DNA of 64,000 nt from Patescibacteria group bacterium (GTDB lineage Bacteria; Patescibacteriota; Patescibacteriia; JAXHNJ01): the NCBI GenBank assembly GCA_043812155.1, contig JBDRMK010000017.1:146509-210508 (forward strand), written 5' to 3'. The position numbers and the translations under genes are program-made. Position 1 is the stretch's first letter, and each line of letters begins with the position of its first letter. The notes under the pieces were generated by a model, which was given only the letters and a program-made list of their open reading frames with translations, did not search any database and was not told the DNA's origin. Shown here in pieces: positions 4,068-57,256 of this stretch.

Positions 4068-5337
4068 CTAGCAGTCGCCGGGCTTCTCCTCGGCCGGTCC
4101 CTCGACGAGAATGCCGAACACGGTCTTCTTGTCTCCTGTCCGGAAAATGATCTGTACGTCGTCGACGCACAGATACACACCCGGAATGGGACGAACATCG
4201 ACGATCACGTCGTCCCCGCCGCCGAGCTTACGGAGAACTATTCGCCCTATATCCGTGATGGTCGCTCGGACGAACTTCGGAATGTCATCCGACTTCGCCG
4301 CGGGCTCGGTCACTGCCGATTCGGGCTTTGACGATTCCGGCGCGGGCGTCTCGGTGACGACCGGCCAGACCTGTCGGGGCGTCTCCGGCGTGAAGGACGG
4401 CGTGCCGTCCTGACGCGGCCGGATCTGTGTCTCCGGCAGAGGCGAGTAGCCCTCTCCCCGACGAACATCGTTACCGCAGAGCATCAGCGTGATGCGGAAC
4501 GTTCCGTCGGAAAGGAAGCATTGCCAGGCCGGTGTCCATTTGGGAAGATCCTTGAATGCCGGTTTGTCTTTGAACTCAACGCGCATCTTCCCGCGGACAT
4601 CCACGGGAACGATGCGTTCGATGGCCACGGCGGGAAGCTTCTCGCTCTCCCCAACGGTCATGCCACGACGTTCGTCCCGGTACTGCTCGGTGAAGTGCTT
4701 GACGGCCGACTCAATTGTCGGTAAACCCCCTTCCACTACCGCCGGACCGGAGTAGGGATTCTCACGTTCCCGTCGCTGTTCCGTCGCCTTGTGAACTTCG
4801 CGTTCGTTCTCGCGGCGTGAACGTTCCCTCTCGAGATCATCCTCAGCTCGCTTTTCTCCCCGCCGCACTATTGCCAGCATAATAATTAGGATAATCACGG
4901 CGGCAAGCAGGAAGACGATACCGAATATCCAACCCACTGGCAAGCCGGAAGATTTCTCTTTGCTCACCACAAAGGGTATCACGGGTACCGTCTTTACGGG
5001 CTGAGGGTCGCCGGTGCGGTCCACTTCCGCGATGATGCGGAATAACTTTACCAGCGAAGCGGGTACGTTGAGCTCATCGCCCGGTTTGATCACATCCGGA
5101 TCCGCTAACTGCGGATTGGCTGCGACCAGTTCGAGCCAGAGCTGCGGCGACCCAAAGGCCACCTGCCACTGACCCACGCGATCCTCGGTCGAAACGATGT
5201 AACCCGTAGGTGCTGTCGGCCCGCTGATAAAGCATCCCGAAAGGACGCTCGACCCACGGATCGGCCTGCACCGGGGCACCGCTGACCAGGAACAGCGTCG
5301 CCAGCAACAGCATGACACTGATGCACCGCTGTACCAT
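4068..5337 (-). CDS. signal-peptide + LysM + TM-anchored protein with an apparent +1 frameshift (or sequencing error) near 5235
   Basis: Signal peptide MVQRCISVMLLLATLFLVSGAPVQA in frame B (start 5337, RBS GAGGAGG). The LysM-like block (YIVSTEDRVGQWQVAFGSPQLWLELVAANPQLADPDVIKPGDELNVP), a TM helix and a charged region lie in frame A. Removing one G from a GGG run joins the frames. Local GC is about 58%, versus about 45% in neighbouring genes. Confidence 0.5.
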
Positions 5338-5593
5338 GTTGGTACCTCCTCGGTTAAAAACCTTTGGCCGCTGCGACACCATGCCGCAGCCGCCTGGAGG
5401 AAATTTTCCTTTTTCAAGGTACGTTCCTCCCCGGAAAGCTTATCTTATATAAGATCTCTAGGGAAGACTGAAAGCCAATGTTTCAGACCATCCAAATAAT
5501 GGAGTAGATACCTTGTCTTGTTAAAGTTACAAAGAACCTACCACCCTATCACAAATTTGAGAATTTGTCAATACCTGCTATAATCTATTCATT

Positions 5594-9601: not shown

Positions 9602-10741
9602 ATGTTTAAAAAACTATTTTTAATAATCTCACTCATTTTTTTCCTCCTGCCTTTGACCGGCCAGGCCAAGGAAAAAGCGACTTTTTATTACGGCTATTCG
9701 TGCCCCCACTGCAAAAATGTGGAAGAATTCATAAAAGACAACAACGTGGAAAGCCGGCTGGACGTTAAAATTGATAAAAAAGAGATCTATCTCAACCGCG
9801 ACAATGCCAGCGCCTTCCAAGCCATCTGCAGTGATTTTAATATTCCCACCAACCAAAGAGGCGTGCCATTCTTGGTCTGGGGCGACCAATATTTTCTGGG
9901 CGACGCGCCGATCATCAGTTTTCTGGAAGATAAATTAAAGGAAACTGACGGCCTTCAAAATAATAATATCAACACTAGCCAAGAAAAAATCTACAACCTT
10001 CCCTTGATCGGCAAAGTGGATCTCGGGAAATTTTCCCTCCCGGTTCTTACTTTGGTCGTGGGAGCGGTTGACGGCTTCAACCCCTGCGCCATGTGGGTCC
10101 TGGTTTTTCTGATCGGCGCCCTTTTAGGTCTTTCAAACCGCAAGAACATGTGGCTTATCGGCCTGACTTTTATCGGCGCCTCCGCGGCTGTTTACTATCT
10201 ATTCCTGGCCGCCTGGCTTAATTTATTTTTGTTCATCGGATATATTAGAATCGTGCAAATCATCATTGGCGCTTTAGCTTTATTTGTCGGCGCTTATTAT
10301 TTAAGGGAATACTGGCAAAAAAGAGGGCAGACAGAGGCGGAGTGCAAAGTCGTCAAAGGCGAAAAAAGGACAAAAATTATCGGCCGTATCAACCAGATCG
10401 TGGAATCAAAAAAAATCTTCTACGCCCTGGTCGGCATCGTGGCTCTCGCTTTTGTCGTCAATCTTATAGAACTCGCCTGCTCCATTGGTTTACCGGCTAT
10501 CTATACCCAACTTTTAACCTTGAATGATCTGCCGAAATGGCAGTATTATCTTTACCTGTTTTTCTATATCATCATCTTCATGCTGGACGACATGATTATT
10601 TTTACGGCCGCCATGCTGGCCGCCAAAGCGACCGGATTAAGCGGCAAATACTCTAAATTCTCCGAGCTTGTCGGCGGCCTGCTAATTTTCCTGATCGGCG
10701 TCTTACTGATCTTAAGGCCGGAGTGGCTGATGTTCGGTTAA
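9602..10741 (+). CDS. thiol-disulfide oxidoreductase fusion: secreted thioredoxin-fold (CPHC) domain + DsbD/CcdA-like membrane domain
   Basis: Signal peptide, then YGYSCPHCKN redox motif. C-terminal polytopic domain has Cys in TM segments (GFNPCAMWVL, ACSIGLP). Confidence 0.55.
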   Translation: MFKKLFLIISLIFFLLPLTGQAKEKATFYYGYSCPHCKNVEEFIKDNNVESRLDVKIDKKEIYLNRDNASAFQAICSDFNIPTNQRGVPFLVWGDQYFLGDAPIISFLEDKLKETDGLQNNNINTSQEKIYNLPLIGKVDLGKFSLPVLTLVVGAVDGFNPCAMWVLVFLIGALLGLSNRKNMWLIGLTFIGASAAVYYLFLAAWLNLFLFIGYIRIVQIIIGALALFVGAYYLREYWQKRGQTEAECKVVKGEKRTKIIGRINQIVESKKIFYALVGIVALAFVVNLIELACSIGLPAIYTQLLTLNDLPKWQYYLYLFFYIIIFMLDDMIIFTAAMLAAKATGLSGKYSKFSELVGGLLIFLIGVLLILRPEWLMFG

Positions 10742-11129: not shown

Positions 11130-11159
11130 GGGGGATCCTTCGGGATTCCCCCATTTTTT
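11130..11159 (+). terminator. strong hairpin terminator with UUCG loop
   Basis: GGGGGATCC-TTCG-GGATTCCCCC followed by T6 on the plus strand. Abuts the stop of the minus-strand GT39 gene. Confidence 0.5.
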
Positions 11160-12435
11160 ATTTAACAATAGAAAACCAACTCGGCAGCCAGGCTCTTAAA
11201 TTTAAGGTGTCTTGCGAGATTTCTTGTCCGGTCAAAACCGGCCAGAAAAAAATAAAGGAAAAAAACACTAGCAAAAGATATCCGGTGATAATGACTTTAT
11301 TCCTTTTATTTTTCTGCCAGTGATCATTCAGGAGATAAATAAATATCAGCCATAAAAAAGGCGCCGCCGGAAGAAAATGATAAAGGAAAAGAGAACGTTT
11401 GATAAAAATAAAAGGCAGAAAATGAGTAAGGAAAATCAATAGAAGAAGATTTATTTTTCTGTCCCTGAACAAATATTTTTTTATCGCGTAAAGGGCGCCG
11501 ACAAGACTCGGCCACCAAACTAATGGATTGCCTAGCTCAACTATCACTTTGATCTTATTCCCGGCTTTTTCAAAAAAATATGGGAAAGGCTGAATATCCA
11601 AAGGCCAGCTCCAAAAAGGAGAACCGTAAGTATGGACTTCCGTGATATTTTCGTGATAAGTGAGAATTTTATAATTTTCATACCAGGTGATGGCTTTGGT
11701 GGCGGTTAAACCGTAATGAATCTGCCAGACGAGAAAATATAAAGAAAAAGGAATGACAATGAAATAAAGAATGAAATAATACCCTGGTAGCCGAATATTC
11801 GGCAAAAAATTTATTATATTTTTTAACGCGGTATTCTGCCACCATTGAGTCTGATTAAGCCACAAAATTAAAATTGGCCCCAAACCGGCTAAGGCCAACC
11901 ACTTAGTGGAAATACTTAAGCCAAAAAATATCCCGGCCAATATTAGAAATAGATGCGCTTTTTTGAAAGTATTACTGCCCAGAAAACAAAAAAACAGGAG
12001 ATAAGCCAGTAAAATAAAGAAGGAGTAAATAACGTCCAGGCGCGCCATTCTAGACTGGACTAAAAACAAACCGTCAAAAAGAAAAAATAAGGAGAAAATC
12101 AGAGGGATAAAATAATTTTTAAAAATTTTCCTGGCCAGCAAATACGCGAGGGGAATCAATAAACTGCCGAATAAAGCGGTAAAAAAACGCCAGCCGAAAG
12201 GCGTGTCGCCAAAAATCTTCATTCCTGAAGCGATGAAGAACTTGCCTAAAGGCGGATGAACATCATGGTAAAAAGTATGGCTTAAATAATGGCGGCCGAA
12301 ATCCACAAAATAATGCTCGTCGGAAACGATTTTCGGAGGCGTGTCTAATTGGTAAAAACGGGTAAATAGCGCGACAAGCGTCAGCGCCAAGATCAATATT
12401 AGATCCCATTTATGATTTTTTAGGCTCATGAACAC
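11158..12435 (-). CDS. GT39 / PMT-family glycosyltransferase (phospholipid-carrier-dependent, ArnT/PMT-like)
   Basis: N-terminal DEHYF and HPPLGK motifs typical of protein O-mannosyltransferase-like enzymes, about 11 TM helices. Confidence 0.8.
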   Translation of the reverse strand: MFMSLKNHKWDLILILALTLVALFTRFYQLDTPPKIVSDEHYFVDFGRHYLSHTFYHDVHPPLGKFFIASGMKIFGDTPFGWRFFTALFGSLLIPLAYLLARKIFKNYFIPLIFSLFFLFDGLFLVQSRMARLDVIYSFFILLAYLLFFCFLGSNTFKKAHLFLILAGIFFGLSISTKWLALAGLGPILILWLNQTQWWQNTALKNIINFLPNIRLPGYYFILYFIVIPFSLYFLVWQIHYGLTATKAITWYENYKILTYHENITEVHTYGSPFWSWPLDIQPFPYFFEKAGNKIKVIVELGNPLVWWPSLVGALYAIKKYLFRDRKINLLLLIFLTHFLPFIFIKRSLFLYHFLPAAPFLWLIFIYLLNDHWQKNKRNKVIITGYLLLVFFSFIFFWPVLTGQEISQDTLNLRAWLPSWFSIVK

Positions 12436-12559
12436 ATTATATCTCTTTTACGCCAAGATAATAAACCCTTGCCAAAATTGAAAAAGTATGGTTAAATGAT
12501 AAACTTAACAGATAAGAAGACGGTTATACCCAAAACTTAGTATTTATTATTATGACGAA

Positions 12560-14245
12560 ATGAGCGAAGAAAAGAAAAATTTCAATCAATTTGCCGCGGA
12601 ATTCCAAGATAAATCCCGGCCGGCCCGGGCCTACGGCCGGAATTATAACGCCGAAAAACCCCTGCGGAATAATATAAAAGAGCTTATTGTCGCTTTGCGC
12701 AAGAACAGATATTCAGACTGGCAGGACCCCAAAATCCCGAAAATCCATGTTTCTTCCACGATTTCCCGCATGGCTTTTTTATACGAAAAAATCCGGGTGG
12801 CCATTGATTATAAAGACGAGCATCTCTTGCGGAAAAACGCCATTGAAAGGATCCTGAAACGCTGGCTTTTAGAAGGAAAGATCGAAACTTTTGATATCCG
12901 GACTTTGATCATGGAGCTGGTCCGGGGCGGCTATTTAAAAAACGACAGCGTGCCGGAAAATGTCGTTTTTGAAGTTAAGCAGATTTTGGAAAAATACTTG
13001 AATTTAATGAAACAAAGCTCGTTCCTGAAAAAAGGCGAAGAACGCTACGCCTTAAACGAATGGATCCTAAGCCTGCTTTCGGTGGAAATTGAAAATCATT
13101 TTTTTCCGGCTTATGAAGACCAGGCCTTGATCGAATACGCTTATTCTCTCCTGCACGATAAGGTGGCCGTTTCCGAGGAAGACACCGACGAAAAAACGAA
13201 GAACACCCAGCTGTATATCGCCATACAGCGGGCGGTCATGAAGTCAGACGACGCCTTGATCCGCTACGGTCTTTTTAAGCTGTATTATCCCGACTGGGAA
13301 ACCACTGATTATTCCCTCGTAACAGAGATAGCCGGCCATATCGATGCATTAAAAATAACCATTGAAAATCAAATAAATCATCCGATCGGCGGTCTTATTT
13401 ACCGGCAGGTGAAAAAATATATCATTCTTCTGCAAATCCTCAAAGACATCATCAAGGAAAATCCGAGCCGGGCCGAAGAAATATTAAGCAATCCGAATCT
13501 CTTGCAGGAAAAAATCGTCAAGGCCTGCGAGATACGGTATAAAAAAGCGCGGACAAAATTAAGCCGCAGTACTTTCCGCTCCGTTATTTATATTTTGCTA
13601 ACTAAGACCGTTCTCGCTTTTGTCTTGGAACTGCCTTATGATGTTTTGATCTACAATACGGTGCACCTGACCGCCTTGATCACCAATATCGTCTTTCACC
13701 CCTTGCTGCTTATTTTTATCGCCGCTAATATATATATTCCCGCCAAGAAAAACACGGAAAAAGTGGTCGAGGCCATCCGCGGCATGATCTATGCCGACGA
13801 AAAAGAATTCATCTTCGCCATTTTCAAAAAACCGATCAAAAGAAGAAAAGGCTGGAATTTCGTTTTCAATCTCCTTTATCTGTTTGTTTTCACTATTTCC
13901 TTCGGAGCGATCATTTATGTCCTGCGCCGGTTTGAATTCAACGCCGCCAGCATCTTCCTCTTTCTCCTTTTCCTGTGCGTGGTCAGTTTTTTCGGCATCA
14001 AGAACCGCGAAACCATGCGCGAACTGATAATCATCGACAAAAAAAGAGGCTTTATCGGCTCACTGCTTGATTTCTTCACTCTGCCGATCATCCGGATGGG
14101 CCGCTGGCTTTCGGTCAAAGCGCCGAAGATCAATGTTTTCACTTTTGTCCTTGATTTTATCGTAGAGGCGCCGTTTAAAATTTTCGTGGAAGTGCTGGAC
14201 GAATGGATGAACTTCATTAAAGAGAAAAAAGAGGAAATCTACTAA
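12560..14245 (+). CDS. hypothetical protein: soluble N-terminal domain + C-terminal multi-TM domain
   Basis: 561-aa ORF with no recognised motif. Divergent from the GT39 gene. Confidence 0.55.
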   Translation: MSEEKKNFNQFAAEFQDKSRPARAYGRNYNAEKPLRNNIKELIVALRKNRYSDWQDPKIPKIHVSSTISRMAFLYEKIRVAIDYKDEHLLRKNAIERILKRWLLEGKIETFDIRTLIMELVRGGYLKNDSVPENVVFEVKQILEKYLNLMKQSSFLKKGEERYALNEWILSLLSVEIENHFFPAYEDQALIEYAYSLLHDKVAVSEEDTDEKTKNTQLYIAIQRAVMKSDDALIRYGLFKLYYPDWETTDYSLVTEIAGHIDALKITIENQINHPIGGLIYRQVKKYIILLQILKDIIKENPSRAEEILSNPNLLQEKIVKACEIRYKKARTKLSRSTFRSVIYILLTKTVLAFVLELPYDVLIYNTVHLTALITNIVFHPLLLIFIAANIYIPAKKNTEKVVEAIRGMIYADEKEFIFAIFKKPIKRRKGWNFVFNLLYLFVFTISFGAIIYVLRRFEFNAASIFLFLLFLCVVSFFGIKNRETMRELIIIDKKRGFIGSLLDFFTLPIIRMGRWLSVKAPKINVFTFVLDFIVEAPFKIFVEVLDEWMNFIKEKKEEIY

Positions 14246-14394
14246 GTTATCGGTAATACACCGCAATTAAGGAAAAATCAGCGGTTTTTTGTTTACATAT
14301 TTTCCTGATGAGTTATAATAAAAAATAGGGTAATGCTAATATATGCGTCAAAAAACTCCTTTAAATAATTTTATTATTAAAAAGGAAAAAAATT

Positions 14395-15402
14395 ATGGGC
14401 AGAAAATTAATCAGTATTATCGCGACGGTTATTGTTTCCGTGCTGGTCGGCTCAGGAATAGTTTATGCGGCTTCGGTGCGTAACATTACCACGACTTTAG
14501 GCGGAGTGGCCGGCGACTATTTTAATCTGGACGGGATACTAACGGTCAGCACGCTGAAAGTCGGCAGCCAAGGAGTAGGCGGCGTCACTTTTTTCAACGG
14601 CTCGATCGTGAACAACACGACAACGGCAGGCTTAGACAATCCGGTTACTTTCGGCGACAACGTGAGAATTGACGGCCGTATTTACCGCGGAGCGACGGCC
14701 GGACCTGGCGACACAATGCCCTTTATTGTCAATGATGATATGGAAATCAAGGGCAATTTAACTCTCAGCACGGGAAAAACGCTCGACTTATCCGGCGTAA
14801 CTGTCAGCGGTTTAGATAATTTTGCCGATCTCGGCCAAGCGGAAACGATTACGGCCAACTGGGTCAATACTCAAAATCCCTGGTCTTCGGCTGAGATCGC
14901 TGATATTACTCGAAGAGTCGCTTTGCCCTTGGCCAGTTTCTATTCGGATGCAGACGGCACCCCTGCCGCCATCACCACGACCACCGTGCCGAATCTCGCC
15001 TATACCGCCAATCAAGGCTTGTCTCTGGTTTACTCGGCCACGGAAACCACGGATATCGGGACGCAATTTACCGTGCCATCCGATTACGTTTCGGGCGGCA
15101 TTTTCAAAGTGTTGGTTGATACCTCCGCTATCCTTGTCGCAGATTTAAATCTTGATTTTAAGGTAGCCATTTCCCAAACGACAGACACAACCGCCTGGGA
15201 TACGGACATGGATGATGAGGATCCGGTTGATATTACCGGCACGGCCGGCACGCCAAAAATCGTCACTCTTACTCCGACCGACCAAACTGACATATCCGCC
15301 GGCGACACGATTTTTTTAGACTTGTTTCCTGATACTTACGGAGCGGCCGAGCCGGATTTGGAAATCTACGCCGTGTGGTTTGAATATACCGCTGTGCAGT
15401 AA
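14395..15402 (+). CDS. Thr/Asn-rich secreted surface protein, paralog A
   Basis: N-terminal signal anchor, then a 130-aa domain shared with the next gene (GVTFFNGSIVNNTTTAGLDNPVTFGDNVRIDGRIYRG identical), divergent C-terminus. RBS present. Confidence 0.7.
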   Translation: MGRKLISIIATVIVSVLVGSGIVYAASVRNITTTLGGVAGDYFNLDGILTVSTLKVGSQGVGGVTFFNGSIVNNTTTAGLDNPVTFGDNVRIDGRIYRGATAGPGDTMPFIVNDDMEIKGNLTLSTGKTLDLSGVTVSGLDNFADLGQAETITANWVNTQNPWSSAEIADITRRVALPLASFYSDADGTPAAITTTTVPNLAYTANQGLSLVYSATETTDIGTQFTVPSDYVSGGIFKVLVDTSAILVADLNLDFKVAISQTTDTTAWDTDMDDEDPVDITGTAGTPKIVTLTPTDQTDISAGDTIFLDLFPDTYGAAEPDLEIYAVWFEYTAVQ

Positions 15403-15421
15403 AAAATTAGGTTTAAATAAG

Positions 15422-15460
15422 AACAATCTTTAGGTCTTCGGGCTTAAAGATTGTTTTTTT
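15422..15460 (+). terminator. rho-independent terminator between the paralogs
   Basis: 11-bp stem AACAATCTTTA/TAAAGATTGTT followed by T7. Confidence 0.7.
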
Positions 15461-15516
15461 ATCACGATTATTATACAATGTAATCAATATAAACTTATTA
15501 TTAAGGAGGAAATAAA

Positions 15517-16284
15517 ATGAAAAAAATTTTAAGTGTCATTATCACGATCTTTGTCTCAGTTCTTATCGCCTCGGGAGTAGTCTATGCCGCCACGCGCAAC
15601 ATTACGGCCACCTTAGGCGGCGCTTCCGGCGACACTTTCCAGCTTTCCGGCGTTATGACGGTTAATTCCTTAAAAGTCGGGGCCCAAGGCACGGGCGGAG
15701 TCACTTTTTTCAACGGCTCGATCGTGAACAACACGACAACGGCAGGCTTAGACAATCCGGTCACTTTCGGCGACAACGTGAGAATTGACGGCCGTATTTA
15801 CCGCGGAGCAATCGCGGGGACAAGCGATACTCTGCCGGTAATCATTAACGATAATCTGGAAGTGGCCGGCGCCATTTCTGCCAGCAGCTTAACTGTTAAC
15901 GGAGTTTCTGTCGGCACGAAAAAAACCTATGAAGGCACTATCGATCTTACGAGCAGCGGCGATGAAATCGTCAGTATAGATACAGGCAATACTTGTTCAC
16001 CGGACACCAATACCAAATATTACAAATATCATTATAAAAAAATAGCCATCCCGGAAATTTCGGTCAGCAACCTCCCTAACCTCCGCGCCTACTGCCACGC
16101 CCACGCCGACAGCGGAATGGCCACAATGCTTCCTAATAGCCGAGACGTTTGGGTCGGCTGCAGTTTATATTACGCCGAAGGTTATGGTTATTTACTCTAC
16201 AAATACGAAAGCGAAACCTGCGCCGGCAGCGTCTCCTCGACTTACTATTACCTCGACGGACAATATAAAATTATTATTTATTAA
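15517..16284 (+). CDS. Thr/Asn-rich secreted surface protein, paralog B
   Basis: Same N-terminal domain as 14395, different C-terminal half. RBS AAGGAGG. Confidence 0.7.
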   Translation: MKKILSVIITIFVSVLIASGVVYAATRNITATLGGASGDTFQLSGVMTVNSLKVGAQGTGGVTFFNGSIVNNTTTAGLDNPVTFGDNVRIDGRIYRGAIAGTSDTLPVIINDNLEVAGAISASSLTVNGVSVGTKKTYEGTIDLTSSGDEIVSIDTGNTCSPDTNTKYYKYHYKKIAIPEISVSNLPNLRAYCHAHADSGMATMLPNSRDVWVGCSLYYAEGYGYLLYKYESETCAGSVSSTYYYLDGQYKIIIY

Positions 16285-16314
16285 TAAAATATTCGTTTAG
16301 AAAAGGTCATTGCC

Positions 16315-16344
16315 TTGACAGCTGTTAAGAATTGCTGGTATAAT
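16315..16344 (+). promoter_or_regulatory. sigma70-like promoter for pilT (TTGACA-18-TATAAT)
   Basis: Consensus -35 and -10 hexamers read directly from the sequence. Confidence 0.5.
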
Positions 16345-16425
16345 ATATTTATGATTTTTAATTATTATAAATAATAATATTTGACGCTTGGTTTTTTTAA
16401 GCCAGGCGTTTTTAGGAGAAAAAAT

Positions 16426-17469
16426 ATGCTTAAAATTGACGATTTATTCAAAGAAGCGGTAAAAAGAGAGGCCTCCGACCTACATCTTATCGCCAATATG
16501 CCTCCGATATTAAGAATTGACGGGGAGCTGAAAAAACTTAATGAGTATCCGGTCCTAAGAACAAAAGACGTGGAGGATCTCTGCTACAGTATTATCTCCC
16601 CTAAACTCAAGGATACCCTGATCAATGACCGGGAATTGGATGTCTCTTACGAAATAAAAGATGTTTCCCGCTTCCGCGTTAACATGCTCTGGGAAAAAAA
16701 TTGTTTGAGTATGGTCGCCCGCGTCATTTCCACTAAAATCCCGACTATGGAAGAACTGAAGATGCCGAATATCGTTTATGAACTGATCCGGCTTAAACAG
16801 GGTTTGATCCTGGTCACCGGCCCCACCGGCTGCGGCAAATCCACTTCGCTGGCCGCCATGATCAACCTGATCAATAACGAAAGAACCTCCCATATCGTCA
16901 CCTTAGAAGACCCGATTGAATTTATTTTCTCGCCCATCAAGTGCATCATCCGGCAAAGGCAGCTCGGTTCGGACATGACGACTTTCGGCCAAGGCTTAAA
17001 GCATGTCTTGCGCCAGGACCCGAACGTGATCATGGTCGGCGAAATGCGCGACCTGGAAACCATCGCCTCCACTATCACTCTCGCCGAAACCGGACACTTG
17101 GTCCTGGCGACATTGCACACCTTAAACGCCGCCCAGACCATTGACCGTATCATTGACGTGTTCCCTCCTTACCAGCAATCCCAGGTGCGGCTGCAAATTT
17201 CTCTGTTCTTGAAAGGCATTATCTCCCAGACCCTTCTGCCGAAAGTGACCGGCGGCCGCATCGCCGCCCGCGAAGTCCTGATCAACACGCCGGCCATCTC
17301 CAATCTTATCCGCGAAAATAAGATCGCCCAGATAAAGACCGCCATCCAGACCAGCGCCGAGGAAGGAATGTTCACTATGGACCAGGATGTCAAAACCCTT
17401 TATGAGAAAAAATTGATCAGTGAGACCATCGCCTTAACGCACATGGTTAATCCGGAAATGCTAAAATAA
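16426..17469 (+). CDS. pilT: type IV pilus retraction ATPase PilT
   Basis: Walker A GPTGCGKST, Asp box, His box and the PilT-specific C-terminal region. Start at the internal ATG with RBS AGGAGA. Confidence 0.9.
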   Translation: MLKIDDLFKEAVKREASDLHLIANMPPILRIDGELKKLNEYPVLRTKDVEDLCYSIISPKLKDTLINDRELDVSYEIKDVSRFRVNMLWEKNCLSMVARVISTKIPTMEELKMPNIVYELIRLKQGLILVTGPTGCGKSTSLAAMINLINNERTSHIVTLEDPIEFIFSPIKCIIRQRQLGSDMTTFGQGLKHVLRQDPNVIMVGEMRDLETIASTITLAETGHLVLATLHTLNAAQTIDRIIDVFPPYQQSQVRLQISLFLKGIISQTLLPKVTGGRIAAREVLINTPAISNLIRENKIAQIKTAIQTSAEEGMFTMDQDVKTLYEKKLISETIALTHMVNPEMLK

Positions 17470-17475
17470 TTAATT

Positions 17476-18432
17476 ATGGTGGACGTTAAACTCATAAAAA
17501 ATATCCCTGTTTTTGCCGGCCTTTCCCCGGAAGAGCTTAATTCGCTTGCTTCCCTCTGTTTGCTTAAAAAAATGGCGGTCGGACAAAAACTTTTTAAGGC
17601 CGGCGAAGGCCGCAAGAATTTTTATGTTATCCTTTCCGGCAAATTAAAGATTTACCGCCTGCTTAAAGACGAACAAGAAGTTATTGCCTATATGGACAAA
17701 GATAATTTTGCCGTGGAAAGCGCCTTGGTCGACCCCGGATTAAAACACACTCATTTCGGCGAAGTCATGGAGAAAGGGGAGATCTTGGAAATGAAAGGCA
17801 GTGATTTTCTTAACTTGTCAAAGAATAACCTCCGCCTGGGAAATAAAATTTACGGCAATATCGTGAATAACCTGACGGAACGGCTGCACCACGCCAACAA
17901 CAAGCTCGTGACCGTATATTCCACCGGCAAGATCGCTTCTACTTACGCCAATATCTATAACTTATTGCCTCTGCTTTTGGAAACAATTCTTTCAGTCATT
18001 AAAGCAAAAAAAGCCTTTTTCGCCCTTTTTAAACCTTTTGAAAATAAAACCGTCATCCAGGAAGCGATCGGTTTCAGCAACAATCAAGCAATAAAAAATT
18101 TGAACTTGGGGCTGCGCGGCGAGCCTTTTTTGGGAAAAATTTTTGAAAACGGGGAAGATATCTTTGTTACCAGTGAGGAAGCGAAAAAAAACAAAGAATA
18201 TAAATTGCCCTATCTGGGCGAGAATGCTCTTGCCGTAAAGATCCAAACCGGACAAAAAATCCTTGGCGCGATTGTTCTGGTGGATAAAAAAGAGGAAGAC
18301 TTTAATTTCAACAATCAAATTCTTCTTAATATAATCTCCCGGCAGATCGCTACCGCTCTCCAGACCGCGGAAAAAACCGAAGACCAAAGCTCACATGAAG
18401 AGCTGAAAAGAGTATATATCAAGCCCTATTAA
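17476..18432 (+). CDS. cyclic-nucleotide-binding (Crp-like cNMP) + GAF domain protein
   Basis: N-terminal cNMP-binding beta-barrel pattern (FKAGEGRKNFYVILSGKLKIY), C-terminal GAF-like region. Starts 7 nt after the pilT stop. Confidence 0.6.
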   Translation: MVDVKLIKNIPVFAGLSPEELNSLASLCLLKKMAVGQKLFKAGEGRKNFYVILSGKLKIYRLLKDEQEVIAYMDKDNFAVESALVDPGLKHTHFGEVMEKGEILEMKGSDFLNLSKNNLRLGNKIYGNIVNNLTERLHHANNKLVTVYSTGKIASTYANIYNLLPLLLETILSVIKAKKAFFALFKPFENKTVIQEAIGFSNNQAIKNLNLGLRGEPFLGKIFENGEDIFVTSEEAKKNKEYKLPYLGENALAVKIQTGQKILGAIVLVDKKEEDFNFNNQILLNIISRQIATALQTAEKTEDQSSHEELKRVYIKPY

Positions 18433-18461: not shown

Positions 18462-18491
18462 GAAGACGGATTGATCCGTCTTGATTTTTTT
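18462..18491 (+). terminator. rho-independent terminator
   Basis: AAGACGGAT-TGA-TCCGTCTT stem followed by T8. Confidence 0.7.
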
Positions 18492-22823: not shown

Positions 22824-23621
22824 TTATACGCTGACTGTTTCCCTTATTCTTTCAATTTTTTTTGATTTTTTCGTTTTGCAGTCAATTTCCAAATAGACGG
22901 CGTTGATCAGCACTTCGCCTTCTTCCGGAATTTCCATCCGGAAAGGTAGCTGGGTTAAAAAGGCTTTTATCACTTCTTCCTTCCGGTCGCCGATCACAGA
23001 GTCGGCCGCGCCAACCATACCCACGTCGGAAATATAAGCCGTTCCGGCCGGCAAGATCCGCTCGTCAGCCGTGGCCACGTGAGTATGAGTGCCTAAGACC
23101 GCCTGCGCCCGTCCGTCCAGATAATGGCCTAGGGCCATTTTTTCCGAAGTCGCTTCCGCGTGGAAATCAACAATGACCACCGCTTCTTCTTTTTTGTATT
23201 TTTGAAAAATCTCGTCGAACTTCCGGAAAGGGCAATCAAAGTCCTCGCCCATGAACACCCGACCCACTAAGTTTACCACAAGTACCTTTTTTAGGCCAAT
23301 TTCAAGCAATTTTTCCCCCCTACCGGCCACGCCTGGCGGATAATTCGCCGGCCGGATTACTTTAGGGTCGGGAGCTTCAAGCATCGCCCGGATATCTTCT
23401 TTTTTAAGAAAATGATTGCCCGTGGTAAAAAAATCCACGCCTGCGTCCATCATTTCATTGGCGGTTTTCTCCGTCAGGCCGATGCCGTGGGCCAAATTCT
23501 CGCCGTTTGCCAATACTAAATCCGGTTGGTATTTCTTTTTTAATTTCGGCATGATTTTTTTCAAACCTTCACGGCCGATCCGGCCGATTATGTCGCCGAA
23601 GAAGAGTACTTTGAGGGTCAC
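22824..23621 (-). CDS. ymdB: YmdB-family metallophosphoesterase (2',3'-cyclic-nucleotide phosphodiesterase)
   Basis: FGDIIGRIGR, GNHF and GHTHV metal-binding motifs of the TIGR00282 family. Confidence 0.8.
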   Translation of the reverse strand: MTLKVLFFGDIIGRIGREGLKKIMPKLKKKYQPDLVLANGENLAHGIGLTEKTANEMMDAGVDFFTTGNHFLKKEDIRAMLEAPDPKVIRPANYPPGVAGRGEKLLEIGLKKVLVVNLVGRVFMGEDFDCPFRKFDEIFQKYKKEEAVVIVDFHAEATSEKMALGHYLDGRAQAVLGTHTHVATADERILPAGTAYISDVGMVGAADSVIGDRKEEVIKAFLTQLPFRMEIPEEGEVLINAVYLEIDCKTKKSKKIERIRETVSV

Positions 23622-23664
23622 GCGTTTTTGGTTGATTAGTTAATTAAGAGAATTAAGTAATTGA

Positions 23665-23790
23665 GAAATTAAGAGTTTTTGAGCATTGGAATTTTGAAAT
23701 TGTTTGGGATTTGATGCTTGAAATTTGGAATTTATAACCATACCTATAACCTTACCAGCTGCCAAACCTTAATTCCAAAACCAAAACAAC
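23665..23790. repeat. AT-rich dispersed repeat (AAATTCCAATG family), copy in reverse orientation
   Basis: GAGCATTGGAATTTTGAAATTG... is the reverse complement of the 9115 and 45740 copies. Confidence 0.55.
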
Positions 23791-23793
23791 GAT

Positions 23794-25320
23794 CTAACGC
23801 GCGTACTCCGTCACTCTGGTCTCGCGGATGACATTTACTTTTATTTCACCGGGATAACGCAATTCTTCTTCAATTTTTTTGGCGATCGCCGCCGCCAGTT
23901 TCATCGCGGCCAGATCGTCGATCTGCTCCGGCATGACAAAAACCCGGATTTCCCGGCCGGCTTGCACGGCATAGGTTTTTTCCACGCCCGGAAATTGCTT
24001 GGCCACTGCTTCCAATTCTTCCAGTCTTTGGATGTAATTTTCATAAGTATCTTTTCTGGCCCCCGGTCGAGCGCCGGAAATAGCATCGGCTACTTTTACG
24101 ATAATGCCTTCCAAAGTTTTTGGCGCGTCCGAATGGTGAGATTTAGCCACATAAGCCACTTCTTCCGGCAGACCGAATTTTTTCATGATATCATAACCGA
24201 TCTCCGGATGGCCGCCCTGCACTTCATGGTCGATCGCCTTGCCGATATCGTGCAGAAGACCGCCCTTTTTGCAGACACTGACATTCGCCCCAAGCTCCTG
24301 GGCTAAAAGGGCGGAAAGTTCCGCCACTTCAATAGAATGCTGCAGAACATTCTGACCGTAAGAAGTCCGGTATTTTAAGCGGCCTAGGATCTGAATAAGT
24401 TTGGGGTCTAAACCGGCCACTCCTACTTTATACGCCGCTTCCTCGCCGGCTTTTTTAATATCCAAGGCTAATTCTTTTTTCGCTTTTTCGATCGTTTCTT
24501 CAATTCGGGCCGGATGAATGCGGCCGTCGGCGATCAATTTATCCAGGGTTCTTTTGGCCAAGTGCCTTCTGATCGGGTTAAAACCGGAGATGACGATCGC
24601 CTCCGGCGTGTCGTCCACTATAATTTCGACTCCGGTCAGCTGTTCGATCGTTTTGATATTGCGGCCTTCGCGTCCGATGATCCGGCCTTTCATTTCGTCC
24701 GAAGGCAAATTTACCACTGTGGTCGTTGTTTCCGTGGCGTGCGAGGAGGCGATCCGCTGGATGACGGAGGAAAGAATATTTTTTGATTCTTTTTCCAGCT
24801 CTTCCTGGCTTTCCGCCTGGAGCTTGCGGATGCGGGCCAAAAGCTCTTCTTTCATCCGGGTCTCCGTATTTTCCAAGAGAACTTTCTTTGCCTCTTCCAT
24901 GGTAAGCTGAGCGATCTTCTCCAATTTTTTTATCTGCTCCTCTTTAACGCCGGAAATCTCTTCTTTCATCTTTTCGATCCGCTGGACTTTATCAAGCAAA
25001 CCTTGTTGCCGTTCCTCAAAATCCAAAATTTTCTGGTCAAACAAACTTTCTCTTTTTTCCAGACGGCCCTGGATACGGTTTAACTCCCGTAGCCGTTCCT
25101 CTCCCTCTTTTTTGGCATCTTCAATAACCGAAAGCGCCTTATCTTTGGCCTGGATAAGGATCTCTTTTTGCTTTTCTTTGGCCTGGTCGATTAAACTTTT
25201 CGATTTTGCTTCAACCGAAGCTGACTCCCTGATCGCCCAAAACTTGCGGGCAAAGTAACCGGCTAAAATGCCGCCCGGCAAGCCTATGGCCAGGAGTATG
25301 ATCCAAATTGATGTGTTCAT
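23794..25320 (-). CDS. rny: ribonuclease Y
   Basis: N-terminal TM helix, coiled coil, KH domain and HD domain (LLHDIGKA). Confidence 0.9.
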   Translation of the reverse strand: MNTSIWIILLAIGLPGGILAGYFARKFWAIRESASVEAKSKSLIDQAKEKQKEILIQAKDKALSVIEDAKKEGEERLRELNRIQGRLEKRESLFDQKILDFEERQQGLLDKVQRIEKMKEEISGVKEEQIKKLEKIAQLTMEEAKKVLLENTETRMKEELLARIRKLQAESQEELEKESKNILSSVIQRIASSHATETTTTVVNLPSDEMKGRIIGREGRNIKTIEQLTGVEIIVDDTPEAIVISGFNPIRRHLAKRTLDKLIADGRIHPARIEETIEKAKKELALDIKKAGEEAAYKVGVAGLDPKLIQILGRLKYRTSYGQNVLQHSIEVAELSALLAQELGANVSVCKKGGLLHDIGKAIDHEVQGGHPEIGYDIMKKFGLPEEVAYVAKSHHSDAPKTLEGIIVKVADAISGARPGARKDTYENYIQRLEELEAVAKQFPGVEKTYAVQAGREIRVFVMPEQIDDLAAMKLAAAIAKKIEEELRYPGEIKVNVIRETRVTEYAR

Positions 25321-25499
25321 AAAATTGTTTTCCTAATCCATAAAACCGCAAGACAACCGCCAAACACGATATATTTGGCCTTTCTTTCTTGGCTTGTTTG
25401 ATTATTTTATGGATTATCATATTCATTATTAATTAGATACTTTAACCATATTAACACAAAAAAGAAAATCCGGCAAGGACTAGCTATATTCTTTCGTTT

Positions 25500-26075
25500 T
25501 TACGGCCGATTGGTGATGATTTTATCGATCAGGCCGTATTTTTTCGCTTCTTCCGCAGACATGAAAAAATCGCGGTCAGTGTCTTTTTCGATCTTAGCCA
25601 AAGACTGGCCGGTATGTTCGGAAAGGATCTTATTTATCTTATCGCGGATCTTTAAGATATGCTCGGCCCGAATCTTGACATCCACCGCCTGGCCGCCCGC
25701 CTCGCCCATCACCTGGTGCAATAAGATCTCGGAATTGGGCAGGGTAAACCTTTTTCCCCGTGTACCGGCGGAAAGCAAAACCGCCCCCATGGAAGCGGCC
25801 ATCCCGACGCAGATCGTGGCGACCTCTGGGGTAATATATTGCATCGTATCGTAAATCGCCATCCCGGCCGTGACCGAACCGCCCGGCGTGTTAATGTATA
25901 TTTTTATTTCTTTATTTTTATCTTCGCTGGCCAAGAATAACAGCTGGGCGATGATGGTATTGGCCAAAGCATCAGAGATCACGTCGCCTAAGAAAATTAT
26001 CCTTTCCTTTAAAAGGCGGGAATAAATATCATATGCACGCTCGCCCAATGAGGTTTTTTCCACCACCATAGGCAC
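25500..26075 (-). CDS. clpP: ATP-dependent Clp protease proteolytic subunit
   Basis: Ser-His-Asp catalytic context ([11 protein letters not shown]...) and overall ClpP pattern. Confidence 0.9.
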
Positions 26076-26162
26076 TCAAACCTGATTTTTTACTGCTGCC
26101 AGATATTTTATATTTAATGATTATCGCTTATTGATTATAAATTAAAAGAAAAATTTTATCAA

Positions 26163-27143
26163 TCATTCGATCCGCCAGCCATCGGCGGTTTTAACCAACT
26201 TGCCTTTAACGGAAAAACCGGCCGCTTTTTTATGGCCGCCGCCGCCGTATTCGGCGGCGATCTTGGCCACGTCCACTTCTTCGCGGGTGGTCCTTAAACT
26301 GCCTTTGACTGTTCCGCTCTTTTCTTCTTTATAAAGAAGGGTGTATTTGGCGTCCGAAAGAAAATTCAAGAAATTGCTTATCCCTTCCGTTGACTCCTCT
26401 TCCGCTCCGCATTCTTCCAGATCTTTTAGGGTGATGGCCGAAGTGACCACGCCGGTTTTTTCATTTTTTTCCAGCCGGGACAAGACCCGGCCCCAAAGCT
26501 TCAAAGAAACCACGTTTTTATTTTTCTGAGTATGATCGCAGATTTTTTTAATATTGGTCCCCTTATTCATCAGGTCGGCCGCCATGGAAAAAGAGGAGAC
26601 GGTCGTGCCGAGATTGGAAAAACAGCCCGTGTCGGTCAAAACGCCGGTGAGAAGATTAGTGGCTTTTTCCTTGTTCAGATGAATTTTTAAAAAATCAAAA
26701 AAATTATAGATGATCTCGGACGTGGACGAGACTTCCAGGCTGACTATATTCAGGTCAAAAAAATGGTCTTCATCCAAACTGGAAGTAAGATGATGATCGA
26801 TGTTGATGACCTTAGTTTTATTTTTATCGATCTGAAAAAGAAAATCCTTTAAACCGGTCCTTTTCACGTCGCCCGCGTCCAAAAATATGACCAGATCAAA
26901 ATCCGCCACCTTCTCCAATTGGTGGCTTATCTTTTCAATACCGGGCAGAAAAAAATAGGCGTCAATCACTTTTTCCCGGGCATAGCAAAGGTGTTTTTTC
27001 CCCAAATCTTCCAAATAATAGGACAAAGCGATCATGGCGCCTAAAGCGTCGCCATCAGGCCGTTCATGGGTGGACAGCAGGATATTATTCGCTTTTGAGA
27101 TCAGTTCCTGAAGTTTTAGAAAAGATGAATTAAATTCTTCCAT
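26163..27143 (-). CDS. nrnA: DHH-DHHA1 phosphoesterase (NrnA-like oligoribonuclease/pAp phosphatase)
   Basis: DHH motif region HERPDGDALGA and DHHA1 GGGH motif. Confidence 0.8.
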   Translation of the reverse strand: MEEFNSSFLKLQELISKANNILLSTHERPDGDALGAMIALSYYLEDLGKKHLCYAREKVIDAYFFLPGIEKISHQLEKVADFDLVIFLDAGDVKRTGLKDFLFQIDKNKTKVINIDHHLTSSLDEDHFFDLNIVSLEVSSTSEIIYNFFDFLKIHLNKEKATNLLTGVLTDTGCFSNLGTTVSSFSMAADLMNKGTNIKKICDHTQKNKNVVSLKLWGRVLSRLEKNEKTGVVTSAITLKDLEECGAEEESTEGISNFLNFLSDAKYTLLYKEEKSGTVKGSLRTTREEVDVAKIAAEYGGGGHKKAAGFSVKGKLVKTADGWRIE

Positions 27144-33349: not shown

Positions 33350-36300
33350 TTAAGGAATGGATAATTGCCAGCCGATTTGGATGACGCCGGGATTTGAGGA
33401 TAAAGTCGGATAAACGAATTTATTCGCCTCAATAATCTTAGTATAATCGCGTCCGTTCCCGTAGAATCTTTCCGCGAGCTTCCACAAGGAATCGCCGGCC
33501 GCCACCGTGTATTTTACTTTACCGATAAATTGAAATACTGTTTCAGAAAATACATCAGCCGCCGAAGTTTTGGTAAAATTTAAGGCATTGGAAATCCTAG
33601 AGGATTTGCCGTTCAAATCAAAGGCGCGGACGGTAATTTCGTAACTTCCCTGGCCCAAACCGGAAACCGGCAGAGAATAAGCGAAAGAAGGCGTTTCATT
33701 AAGAGCGTTATTTACTACGGCGAATTCGTCCACGTATTGGCCGTCAACATAAACCTTGATCAAAGAATCATTGCGCGCCACGCCGCGGATGATCACTTCG
33801 GGATTGGTTCCGTCCTTGAAAATCGGCTCAAAAAGCGTGGGCGTGATATAAGGCAAAGCCACGGTAAAATAAATTTTTGGCGATCGATCCGAATAAACTC
33901 CGTCCGCATTGCGGGCGATCGTATATACGCTATGCACCCCGTTGGATAAATTCCTTCTTATTTTATAGAAAAATGAGCCGGTATCGGAAGGATGATCAGT
34001 GGAAAGAACCGTTTTTTCCAGATCATTATCAATAAAAATAAAAATAGTGTTATTAGAACGGGCCAGGCCGGTGATCGTCGGGCTTGAGGTGTCGATCGTA
34101 CTGTCGGCCTCTGGAAAAACAATGGTCGGCGAAGCCAAATAGGCCGACTCAGCCGCCAAAATAAATGTTTTGTCCGTTTCAAAAGCCGCCGTGTTGCCCG
34201 TGCTGAAAACTTTATAATGATAAGTCGTGCTGGCGGTCAATCCAGTAATCGTTATTTCATGAAGAGTGGTCAGGGTCGCACTGCTTGCCTCGCTTCCGTA
34301 ATCCGTGGTCAAGCCGTAAAGAACCCGGGAATCCGCCGCGTGATTGGTCGTCCAGGAGATTTTTACTGAAGTCGAAGAAAGCTGAGTCGCCGCCACGTTG
34401 CTGATGACCGTCCGGTCGCTGGTCACGATCGCTTCGGTTGTTGAATATTCGCTTTCAACGCCGTCCCCGTTTTTCGCTTTTACTTGAAAACTATAGGTAG
34501 TTTCCGGAGACAAACCGGTAATCGTTATGCCGCTGCTTCCCCAGACTGCTTGCGTCTGCCAGACCGCGGCCGGACCCAAAGAACCATCGGCTTGAACGTA
34601 ATTTCCCGTGCCAGCTTCATAAATCGCAAAAGATGTCGCCGCCGGATTATCATTATTATTGATCGATAGAGTCACGGTCGTCGCCGTAGAAACCAGGGTC
34701 GGTGTCCCCGGCACGTTGGCCAAAGTGTAGACCGAAGCAGAGGTCCCGTAGGAACTGGTGTTGCCCTGACTGTCGGTAAACCTGACATCGTAAGTATATT
34801 GAGTGTTGGGATTTAAAGAAGAATCGGTCTTTGTGCTTGTGCTGTTTGAGACGGCGGTTAAAGCGGTTGTGCCGTCCCTTCTTACCTGCCAGGTAGAAAG
34901 ACCGGACCCGTTTTCCGTCACGCTTGAAGGTTTGTTTAAGACAATGGAACTTGAAGTAAGGGTGCCGAAAGTGGGAGCGCCGACGCTTGAGGGAGCTTTA
35001 TTATCCACTCCAAAAGCCGAGGAAGTAGCCCAGGCGCTGGCGTTATCCGTACCGTCATTAGGCCTCACTTGCAAGTAAACGCTTGAATCCTCGGTATCGG
35101 CTAAATCCGTGGCGCTATCCCAAGCAAAAACATGGTCTTCACCCGGACTGGCTGAAGCAGTTAAGCCGGTTAAACCATCTCCTCCGGCAGTCATGGTCGC
35201 GTCTGTCCAGGAAGAACCGTCAACGGAATATTCAAGGCCTGAAGAAGCACCCTGAGAAATATTTGAAGTATCGCTGTCATAATCAACCAGATTGTAATTG
35301 ACCGAAATATCTCCTGACTGCCAGGTGGAAAAATCATCGTCAAAAGTGGCCTCAGGGTAATTATTCAAAGTCAGGGAAAGATTATCCAAAGAGACTTCTT
35401 GAGTGCCGTCGGAATGGAAAAAGGCCCGAATCAGAAGTTGGCCAGAGCCGGCCGGAAAAGTCGAGACATTCGTATCGATGTCAGAAGCTGTATTGGCTTG
35501 GCTGTAAGTGCCGTCGGAAGCGATCCAACCACCGCTGTAATATGACCAGGTGGAACCGTCATTATTGCTTAAAATGTATTTGATCTCGCCTCCATTTTTG
35601 GTGGCCGTTTCGGAAAAAGCGGATAACGTATCAAATGTGACGGCCGTACTATTAGTGATGACGGGGTCGTCGGCAGGATAAATCGTTTCCTCACTACCGG
35701 CGCTAGCTGTCTCTCCTAAACTTTTCCAAGCTTTATAATCATCCCATTCTGCTTCAGCATCGTCCCAAGTGTGAACTGTGGGATAAGCCCTATTAGCACA
35801 ATTAGATAGACTTTCGGTTGCTTGCTGAATAGCCTGAGTGCCATCAAGATAGCCCGTAATTTGTAACCAGCCAGGATCATCGCCACAGGTTGGTCGCCAA
35901 GTAGATTGTACATCTAATAATTGTGTATAACGAGTATCAACATTTTGACTAACAGTAATTGTTTCTCCAGTCCATGGTCCTTCGCCCATACCTGAATATA
36001 AAGTTACAATATTGGTGCTAGGTTGAGAACCCCACCACCAAACACCAATATCATTATCACCTTCATTTACATTATCATATATTCCGACGCTCATTAAATC
36101 AGTAGTGGCACTAGTACGCTTGCCCATTACTTCTAAATAGTAGTCATGGGCAGAGATATCCATAGTAGCGGTTTGATCAGCAATTAAACAATTAATGTTT
36201 GTTGGCCCAACGCCGGTTTTTTTTAATTTTCCATCAGCGACTGAAATTCTACTGGCACAATCGGCTCCAATCACTGTCCAGCTTGGATCAGAAGAAAAAT

Positions 36301-36880: not shown

Positions 36881-36897
36881 TATTTTTGTATCTCTGA

Positions 36898-39126: not shown

Positions 39127-39128
39127 AC

Positions 39129-56641: not shown

Positions 56642-56644
56642 ATT

Positions 56645-57256
56645 ATGCGCTATTCTACCACCAAAATAATTCTCAAGCCTCTTTTTCGCCCTAAATTCAA
56701 GGAGATCAACGGCCTTTCCAACCTGCCCCAAAACGGCTCGTTTATATTGGCCGCCAACCATATTGATTATTTGGACGGCTATTTCATTTCCTTTGGCCTA
56801 GAGATCAGGAAAAAACTGGATATATATTTCCTTTCAAAAACCAAAAATTACTGGTGGGCCGGCTCCACCTTGCCGATTGACCCTCAAGACCGGGAAAAAA
56901 GCCTCCGCCAGGCGGTCAATTATCTGCAGCAAGGGAAAATCATCTGCAATTTCATTGAAGGAAAGAGAAATCCGGAAAAATACCTGCTTGAAGGCAGGAC
57001 CGGCACGGCCAGAATGGCTTTAAAGGCCCGGGTTCCCGTTATTCCGGTCGGCATTACTTGCCCGATCAACCGGACTTTTCCTGGAGCCTTAGCCAGTTTG
57101 CTTACCCATAACCATCAGGCTATAATAAACATCGGTCAGCCGATCAGCTTTGAAAAATATTACGGCCAAGATATAACAAAACCGCTGCTTATTGAATTAA
57201 CCCGGGAAGTGATGAAAAAAATCTCGCCTCTTTGCGGCAAAGCCTATTCATTTTAA
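56645..57256 (+). CDS. LPLAT/PlsC-family acyltransferase, paralog 3
   Basis: NHIDYLD and FIEGKRN motifs. Confidence 0.7.
   Translation: MRYSTTKIILKPLFRPKFKEINGLSNLPQNGSFILAANHIDYLDGYFISFGLEIRKKLDIYFLSKTKNYWWAGSTLPIDPQDREKSLRQAVNYLQQGKIICNFIEGKRNPEKYLLEGRTGTARMALKARVPVIPVGITCPINRTFPGALASLLTHNHQAIINIGQPISFEKYYGQDITKPLLIELTREVMKKISPLCGKAYSF

Follow-up and report, generated by a model that had tools for sequence, protein, structure and literature searches.

Introduction

Few surface machines are conserved in Patescibacteria. Type IV pili (T4P) belong to these, T4P genes including pilT being widely conserved, and they drive twitching and host attachment in cultivated Saccharibacteria (PMC11623550). 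The post-translational controls of T4P that have been reviewed act mainly on the extension motor PilB, through MshEN and cyclic di-GMP (c-di-GMP), PilZ-FimX or CpiA (PMC11656802, PMC8213720), and cyclic AMP (cAMP) acts via Vfr on transcription, Vfr-cAMP governing T4P gene expression in Pseudomonas (PMC11656802). Neither "cyclic" nor "cAMP" occurs in PMC11623550, and a full-text search of a limited literature collection found no work on a PilT paired with a cyclic nucleoside monophosphate (cNMP)-binding and GAF protein in Patescibacteria, nor on a protein O-mannosyltransferase (PMT) in these bacteria. Here, we describe such a pair in a 64,000-nucleotide stretch of DNA from the metagenome-assembled genome of a Patescibacteria group bacterium (contig JBDRMK010000017.1, positions 146,509 to 210,508; hereafter the window), where pilT is followed by a gene for a protein with a CRP-like fold and a GAF domain, which we refer to as the sensor.

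Patescibacteria are tiny, regulator-poor cells. Regulation of PilT by a sensor devoted to it would add a new control point. Were the sensor to dock directly on the PilT hexamer, as in the most speculative proposal below, small molecules would have a direct input to the motor of retraction instead of that of extension, which is the case in very few systems. If the pairing reflects inherited gene order only, the locus is ordinary.

Conservation of the pilT-Sensor Pair

The pilT and sensor genes are predicted to form a bicistronic operon. Their spacer is 6 nt long (TAA at 17467-17469, ATG at 17476) rather than the 7 nt given in an earlier sequence-only reading of this DNA, whose pairing of pilT with a Crp-like gene was borne out by matches to TIGR01420 and PF00027. 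A sigma-70-type promoter, which was the region's top-scoring promoter site in a consensus scan, and an intrinsic terminator enclose exactly these two genes (Table 1), such promoter and terminator calls being consensus matches and not proof.

Comparison of eleven genome loci and six further look-ups by tblastn and Pfam, 17 sensor-family loci in all, revealed pilT directly 5' of the sensor gene in ten, with gaps of 3-13 nt (the window and the loci L001, L002, L004, L010, L012/L013, L014/L015, L100, L101 and L102). At L002, L004, L012 and L100-L102 the flanks have changed, to include ClpB, CorA, N_methyl pilin-like genes, an integrase and SAICAR synthase, and the pilT-sensor pair alone has been kept. 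Sensor identity to the window protein is 44-73% across this turnover, and the survival of the pair at such identities still favors a functional link, as judged from gene order. The conserved object is thus the predicted pilT-sensor operon and not a module of six genes.

All pilT-linked sensors belong to one clade of a neighbor-joining tree, and it is only in this clade that an extreme C-terminal tail, [KR]-x-Y-I-x-P-hydrophobic, is conserved. Three homologs chosen by the tail alone (P0017, P0042 and P0024) all had a 349-aa T2SSE gene directly upstream, and pilT is adjacent at 10/10 tail-bearing loci versus 0/7 tail-less loci.

The assignment of the upstream gene is based on its match to the TIGR01420 pilT_fam model with 433.9 bits (cut-off 319.1) and to Pfam T2SSE with an E-value of 4.2e-44, the PilB, GspE and ComGA models all scoring far under their cut-offs. 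Its open reading frame (ORF) spans 16381-17469, with a likely start at the ATG at 16426, which lies behind AGGAGA and gives a protein from whose residue 1 orthologs align. The translation contains the Walker A motif GPTGCGKS(T), DPNVIMVGEMRD, TGHLVLATLHT and AISNLIRE, which is of the AIRNLIRE type. A Walker A motif, a Walker B/Asp box, a His box and the AIRNLIRE motif are the defining marks of the PilT family.

As the sequence-only reading had stated, pilB, pilC and pilM are absent from the 64-kb window; nor does it contain a pilin gene, and no class III prepilin signal (N_methyl; G/[FM]xxxE, with the slash at the cleavage site) was found in any of its six frames. N_methyl prepilin-type genes are located just upstream of the pilT-sensor pair in L004 and L100, which ties this PilT to pilus genes in those relatives. 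These two loci and L102 form a sub-clade in which N_methyl prepilin-like genes precede the pair (L004, 4410-6825; L100, 522-3874; L102, 441-2312), as does a conserved protein of 611-623 aa without a Pfam match. A small ORF, also without a Pfam match, follows the sensor gene in some relatives (L012, 9011-9370, 119 aa after a 2-nt gap; L100, 5994-6275, 93 aa). The window differs from this arrangement in that a terminator and a tRNA-Arg gene follow its sensor gene.

The Sensor Protein and Its Ligand Pocket

The sensor has a CRP/FNR-fold domain (residues ~1-135), a linker, a GAF domain (~160-300) and a C-terminal tail, KRVYIKPY. Its match to the cNMP_binding model PF00027 (41.7 bits; cut-off 27.5) is shared by 23/23 family members. 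The GAF domain, which the sequence-only reading had also proposed, falls just below the GAF_2 cut-off in the window protein itself (26.6 versus 28.6 bits), yet GAF_2 is matched by 21/23 family members (best E 1e-12) and GAF by 16/23 (the family models being PF13185, PF01590 and PF13492), and the secondary-structure pattern of this region in an AlphaFold2 (AF2) model agrees with a GAF domain. Pfam matched neither HTH_Crp_2 nor any other DNA-binding, enzymatic or other output domain in the sensor. A search of 5.8 billion proteins returned 52 sensor clusters at E 1e-71 or better, after which the next match was an ordinary Crp at E 3.5e-4, and all clusters with a source name are from Patescibacteria or "bacterium". 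The sharp drop after these clusters indicates a sensor family that is small, lineage-specific and of fixed architecture.

The AF2 model has two well-formed domains and a mean predicted local distance difference test (pLDDT) score of 80.5, and the top Foldseek matches of its CRP-fold domain are the sensor domains of DNR, CRP, GlxR and FNR. Profile alignments to PKG and Escherichia coli CRP equate sensor residues V80, E81, H91 and 92 with G71, E72, R82 and S83 of CRP (mature numbering), and R136, A140 and N141 with R123, T127 and S128. In the cassette F-A-V80-E81-S-A-L...K-H91-T-H93 the Glu is kept, the cassette Gly is replaced by Val and the Arg by an invariant His; that is, the sensor lacks the canonical phosphate-binding cassette G-E...R-[ST]-A with its cyclic-phosphate Arg. 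The remaining pocket positions are invariant. H91, H93, R136, H138 and H139 are among the residues invariant in the family, and the linker R136-L-H-H-A-N-N-K...T-G-[KR]-I-A(S) is near-invariant in the family alignment. These alignments point to a pocket that is strongly constrained yet non-canonical, and with His and Val in place of the cassette Arg and Gly, its ligand may not be 3',5'-cAMP or cyclic GMP (cGMP). The "cyclic-nucleotide" label given to the protein earlier is doubtful.

Four invariant His residues (91, 93, 138 and 139; window 17746-17892) fall within the CRP-fold domain, in its ligand cassette and its C-helix. Their presence suggests a metal, heme or unusual nucleotide as a candidate ligand. 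A few kb 3' of the sensor gene (window 22824-27143, minus strand) there is a run of genes for YmdB (of the 2',3'-cyclic-nucleotide phosphodiesterase family), RNase Y, ClpP and a DHH/DHHA1 phosphoesterase, which could be relevant to 2',3'-cNMP or nanoRNA metabolism.

Proposed Role of the Pair

The explanation that we consider best, and to which as a whole we give an even chance, is that the region consists of four independent units among which there is only one conserved functional pair, pilT and the sensor gene, and that the sensor of this pair is a ligand-gated, post-translational regulator of PilT. The sensor would be cytoplasmic and would take up a small ligand in its CRP-fold pocket, its GAF pocket or both. 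The ligand-bound sensor would then modulate the PilT hexamer through contact between the two proteins, possibly via the clade-specific tail R-x-Y-I-x-P-hydrophobic, so that a metabolic or second-messenger signal would tune pilus retraction (for twitching, host contact or DNA uptake). Ligand binding probably departs from the mode canonical for cAMP or cGMP, given the invariant His at the position of the cassette Arg. Direct binding to PilT, a role for the tail and the nature of the ligand are all predictions made from sequence.

A regulatory link of the sensor to PilT is plausible. The sequence-only reading had proposed second-messenger control of pilus retraction, and the part of that proposal that couples the sensor to pilT is retained, based on the operon signals and on the ten loci of one clade. 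Its cyclic-nucleotide part has been weakened by the Arg to His and Gly to Val replacements, by there being no nucleotide cyclase gene in the window and by the seven family members without pilT. Potentially, the tail-bearing CRP-fold/GAF proteins represent a new class of output-less, ligand-gated regulators that dock on the PilT hexamer and switch retraction in episymbionts of the candidate phyla radiation (CPR), sensing a non-cNMP ligand or a metal or heme via the His-rich pocket (H91, H93, H138 and H139), although we regard this wider proposal as speculative and doubtful.

Several findings weigh against a regulator of PilT, and most of them would be expected if the sensor were instead a general ligand-sensing or buffering protein with non-pilus targets that stands behind pilT through inherited gene order in compact genomes. 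No pilT gene occurs within 10 kb at seven of the 17 sensor-family loci, and six of those seven sensors come after ribE-ribH-UDG, that is, after riboflavin and uracil-DNA glycosylase (UDG) genes. The linkage is confined to a single clade, and since the tail and the pilT adjacency both map to it, they represent one evolutionary event, not ten; both could have been inherited without a functional link. The short spacer is weak evidence here because 10 of the 32 same-strand neighbor pairs in the window are also separated by 15 nt or less, including functionally unrelated genes for TrxB-like, aminotransferase and GDH proteins. At L001, L010 and L014 synteny extends beyond the pair (a thioredoxin-like membrane protein; orf561, the gene of a membrane protein described below; and PPDK or YmdB/RNase Y), and inference from those three loci is therefore weaker. 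The lack of a cyclase gene in the window also belongs here, as does the pLDDT of less than 50, the lowest in the AF2 monomer, for the most conserved sensor segment, 138-155, which would fit an interface that the monomer model misses. Against inherited gene order as the cause, the pair has been kept where all other neighbors have changed and sensor identity is down to 44%, and the clade-specific tail tracks the linkage at every locus examined. On these grounds we regard a sensor that merely accompanies pilT as somewhat unlikely, and prefer a ligand-gated regulator of PilT.

Region Layout and Neighboring Genes

The region 11158-18432 holds six genes in the ORF list of the window, not five (Table 1). 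The gene absent from the sequence-only reading is orf561, and it is from orf561, rather than from the two secreted paralogs, that the PMT gene diverges. Promoter and terminator consensus matches argue for PMT, orf561, paralog 1, paralog 2 and the pilT-sensor pair being separate units. The hairpin 3' of paralog 1 was not listed by the terminator scanner, its stem having fewer than three G-C pairs.

Table 1. Genes and predicted transcription signals at the pilT-sensor locus (window positions).
Feature	Position	Strand	Basis or description
PMT/GT39-type GT-C glycosyltransferase	11158-12435	-	425 aa; Pfam match
orf561, membrane protein, 561 aa	12560-14245	+	ORF between PMT and the paralogs
Promoter-like site 5' of paralog 1, TTTACA-16-TATAAT	14292-14319	+	11/12 consensus positions; consensus match only
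Paralog 1, secreted, 335 aa	14395-15402	+	Signal peptide/anchor, Thr/Gly-rich N-domain, C-terminal beta-sandwich
Terminator-like AT-rich hairpin then T-run, 3' of paralog 1	15422-15461	+	Read from sequence
Paralog 2, secreted, 255 aa	15517-16284	+	Signal peptide and N-domain as in paralog 1, different C-terminus
Predicted sigma-70-type promoter of pilT-sensor operon, TTGACA-18-TATAAT with TG extension	16315-16344	+	12/12 consensus positions
pilT, PilT/PilU-family hexameric retraction ATPase, 347 aa from ATG	16426-17469	+	TIGR01420
Sensor gene, CRP-fold (cNMP_binding) and GAF, 318 aa	17476-18432	+	Pfam
Predicted intrinsic terminator 3' of sensor gene	18463-18482	+	8-bp stem then T-run
tRNA-Arg	starts 18522		3' of sensor terminator

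The two paralogs are, as had been noted, tandem, secreted and Thr-rich, with a shared N-terminal domain and divergent C-termini. They have 66% identity over their first ~135 aa (residues 2-132; E 3e-59) and unrelated C-termini, and their Thr contents are 14.3% (paralog 1) and 10.2% (paralog 2) versus ~3-8% for most other window proteins. Their N-terminus has the n-h-c layout of a Sec-type signal peptide or anchor (...VYA/AS), whose predicted cleavage site has an invariant Ala-Ala. They belong to a family of more than 256 clusters whose named sources are Patescibacteria, Kerfeldbacteria and unclassified "bacterium", with the exception of one partial protein labelled Thioploca sp.; two further copies are on the same contig outside the window. 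Many members share the N-domain only and differ in their C-termini. We consider the paralogs to be surface proteins from a large family specific to the CPR, in which a conserved N-terminal stalk is combined with swappable C-terminal domains. The N-domain has no known relative, and in the AF2 monomer of paralog 1 it shows no regular structure.

Paralog 1 has ~60 full-length orthologs. Its AF2 model has a pLDDT of 79 overall and of ~90 for residues 170-335, which form a beta-sandwich. Foldseek matched this C-terminal region of ~170 aa to the jelly-roll fold of surface proteins with carbohydrate-binding modules (CBM15, CBM16 and CBM35), to MAM and to the gingipain cleaved adhesin, with E-values of 2e-6 to 1e-3. 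The likeness to the CBM and gingipain domains is at the level of fold only, with 9-18% identity and template modeling scores of ~0.5-0.6. Based on this model, paralog 1 is probably a glycan-binding surface adhesin with a CBM-like jelly-roll C-terminus. The C-terminal domain of paralog 2 contains Tyr/Cys, and a full-length ortholog with 51% identity is present in L012. Two other identities were considered for the paralogs and rejected. Paralog 2 bears an NCBI name as a bactofilin, but its match to PF04519 (22.7 bits) is below the cut-off of 27.9 and paralog 1 has none; both, moreover, have an N-terminal signal peptide or anchor, unlike bactofilin, a cytoplasmic polymer. They are not pilins either, since the window contains no prepilin motif and their signal is of the Sec type ending in A-A.

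The glycosyltransferase was correctly placed in the PMT/GT39 family, as it matched Pfam PMT (PF02366) with 112.7 bits (2.7e-32), PMT_4TMC with 77.8 bits (1e-21) and PMT_2 at 4.4e-10. It has ~10 hydrophobic segments and a DE motif, SDEHYF, at residues 38-43 in the first extracytoplasmic loop. By these domains and this motif, it is predicted to be a GT39-type protein O-mannosyltransferase, an enzyme which would use polyprenyl-phosphate-mannose as donor and modify Ser/Thr residues of secreted proteins.

The product of orf561 has a soluble N-terminal part of ~330 aa and then four transmembrane helices at ~341-480. Its family comprises 929 representative clusters (50% identity) of ~530-aa proteins, with Y75, E76, R79, D532, E536 and P538 among the invariant residues. 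It had no Pfam, NCBIfam, PADLOC or PHROG match and no sequence relative in the PDB, and the 611-623-aa protein that precedes the pilT-sensor pair in L004, L100 and L102 showed no similarity to it (tblastn, E <= 1e-3). A dedicated partner or platform for PilT was considered for orf561 and rejected: it is directly 5' of pilT in its close relatives (L001, L010, L012 and L014), but pilT is adjacent at none of 80 more distant orf561 loci. At those 80 loci paralog-family genes are adjacent in four cases and PMT in none. The PMT gene stands beside orf561 in L001 and L014, not in L010 or L012. PMT and orf561 appear beside the pilT-sensor pair as neighbors by shared ancestry. Locus L018 carries an orf561 ortholog and, after it, a paralog-1 ortholog, and its other strand encodes pilin and PilM. 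The association of orf561 with the paralog family is loose but recurrent.

The sequence-only reading had combined these genes in one surface-glycoprotein or pilus-associated module, in which PMT would O-glycosylate the Thr-rich paralogs and the products would act with PilT and the sensor. The Thr content and signal peptides of the paralogs would suit such a module, as would the presence of a PMT-type enzyme 2 kb away. Orthologs of both paralogs are also found upstream of orf561-pilT-sensor in L012, and the L018 arrangement places a paralog-1 ortholog near pilus genes. However, orf561 lies between PMT and the paralogs; at L001, L010 and L014 the stretch from orf561 to pilT contains no paralog, and L010 and L012 lack PMT; and the paralog-1 orthologs of L016, L017 and L019 have unrelated neighbors, without T4P or PMT genes. 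No PMT gene occurs at any of the 80 orf561 loci, including the four with paralog-family genes, nor next to any other paralog locus, and the promoter and terminator matches split the genes into separate units. The paralogs lack a prepilin motif, and the enrichment in N-x-S/T sequons that had been claimed for them was not confirmed, the five and four sequons found comparing with 3.1+-1.6 and 3.0+-1.5 expected from composition. Such sequons would in any case be the wrong signal, as they concern N-glycosylation whereas GT39 enzymes O-mannosylate Ser/Thr. Finally, other Thr-rich secreted proteins of the window are equally good candidate substrates. A module of this kind is therefore quite unlikely, and the secreted paralogs and the glycosyltransferase are ordinary neighbors with no link to the pilT-sensor pair.

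The other candidate substrates are encoded one after another at window 33350-42362 (minus strand). They are three giant proteins rich in Thr/Ser (1176, 742 and 1077 aa; T 8-14%), whose domains include fn3, PurpleAcidPhosphatase_N, LysM, GH43 and MopE-like metal-binding motifs. A location at the cell surface is probable for them, and they are as plausible substrates of PMT as the paralogs. At L017 (8001-11413) a paralog-1 ortholog is followed by a 330-aa protein and then by a Wzy_C (O-antigen-ligase-like) protein, an arrangement which hints at another kind of glycan link for the paralog family.

Three further features of the window were observed. The gene at 9602-10741 (plus strand) encodes a protein of 379 aa in which a glutaredoxin/thioredoxin-like CxxC domain at the N-terminus is fused to a polytopic membrane domain; its L014 ortholog has faint Glrx-like and SfLAP matches, and synteny with the pilT region includes this gene in L001, L010 and L014. 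The segment 4001-6000 is locally GC-rich (0.545 versus ~0.45) and contains a 449-aa ORF without a Pfam match (4068-5417, minus strand). Three consecutive paralogous acyltransferase (PF01553) genes follow an H+-pyrophosphatase gene at 55386-57256 (plus strand).

Comparison with Known Systems

The sensor resembles CRP, Vfr and SyCRP1 in its N-terminal beta-barrel sensor fold and C-helix, with the equivalents of CRP E72 and R123 and the hinge TG[KR]IA conserved. It differs in that a GAF domain replaces the winged helix-turn-helix (HTH) domain, CRP R82 is an invariant His and G71 is Val, and given these differences it does not qualify as a transcription factor and is at most a putative cNMP binder. 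A CRP-like transcription factor of pilus genes, in the manner of Vfr or SyCRP1, would account for an N-terminal domain closest to the sensor domains of CRP, DNR, GlxR and FNR and for the retained hinge motif. With HTH_Crp_2 and every other DNA-binding domain unmatched and a GAF domain as the C-terminal half in 21/23 members, such a role is very improbable. An anti-phage role of the Pycsar or CBASS type, with the sensor as a cNMP-binding effector that answers a cyclase signal, is scarcely credible, as the weak PADLOC matches to cNMP-binding TIR effectors (16.6-18 bits; E 3e-4 to 7e-4) cover the cNMP domain only, there is no cyclase in the window and no TIR, transmembrane or nuclease effector domain, and the genes, which have housekeeping neighbors, are inherited vertically on the chromosome.

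DNR and CooA bind heme and FNR an Fe-S cluster, and these proteins represent sensors of the CRP/FNR superfamily with non-nucleotide ligands. DNR is the best structural match of the sensor, whose pocket is also non-canonical and has four invariant His residues. Unlike the sensor, all three are DNA-binding regulators, and a heme or metal ligand would be an analogy from residue identities.

The glycosyltransferase shares with bacterial GT39 enzymes and actinobacterial Pmt the PMT and PMT_4TMC domains, the DE motif of loop 1 and a polytopic GT-C topology. With its 425 aa it is the shorter protein, it scored 77.5 bits against a cut-off of 800 for the NCBIfam Pmt equivalog NF058602, with only residues 58-144 aligning, and it has no conserved linkage to the Thr-rich paralogs.

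The closest counterparts of the pilT-sensor pair are MshE/PilB, which bind c-di-GMP at the N-terminus, FimX-PilZ-PilB and the PilB inhibitor CpiA (PMC11656802; PMC8213720). The likeness is that of a sensor or small partner proposed to act post-translationally on a hexameric ATPase of the PilB/PilT superfamily. The target in those systems is the extension motor PilB, which is reached via c-di-GMP, PilZ, EAL and MshEN modules or small inhibitory peptides, whereas in the present pair a CRP-fold and GAF protein is the sensor and is predicted to partner PilT, the motor of retraction. The coupling of a ligand sensor to a pilus motor is a known kind of control, of which this locus is best described, by genomic inference, as a putative variant.

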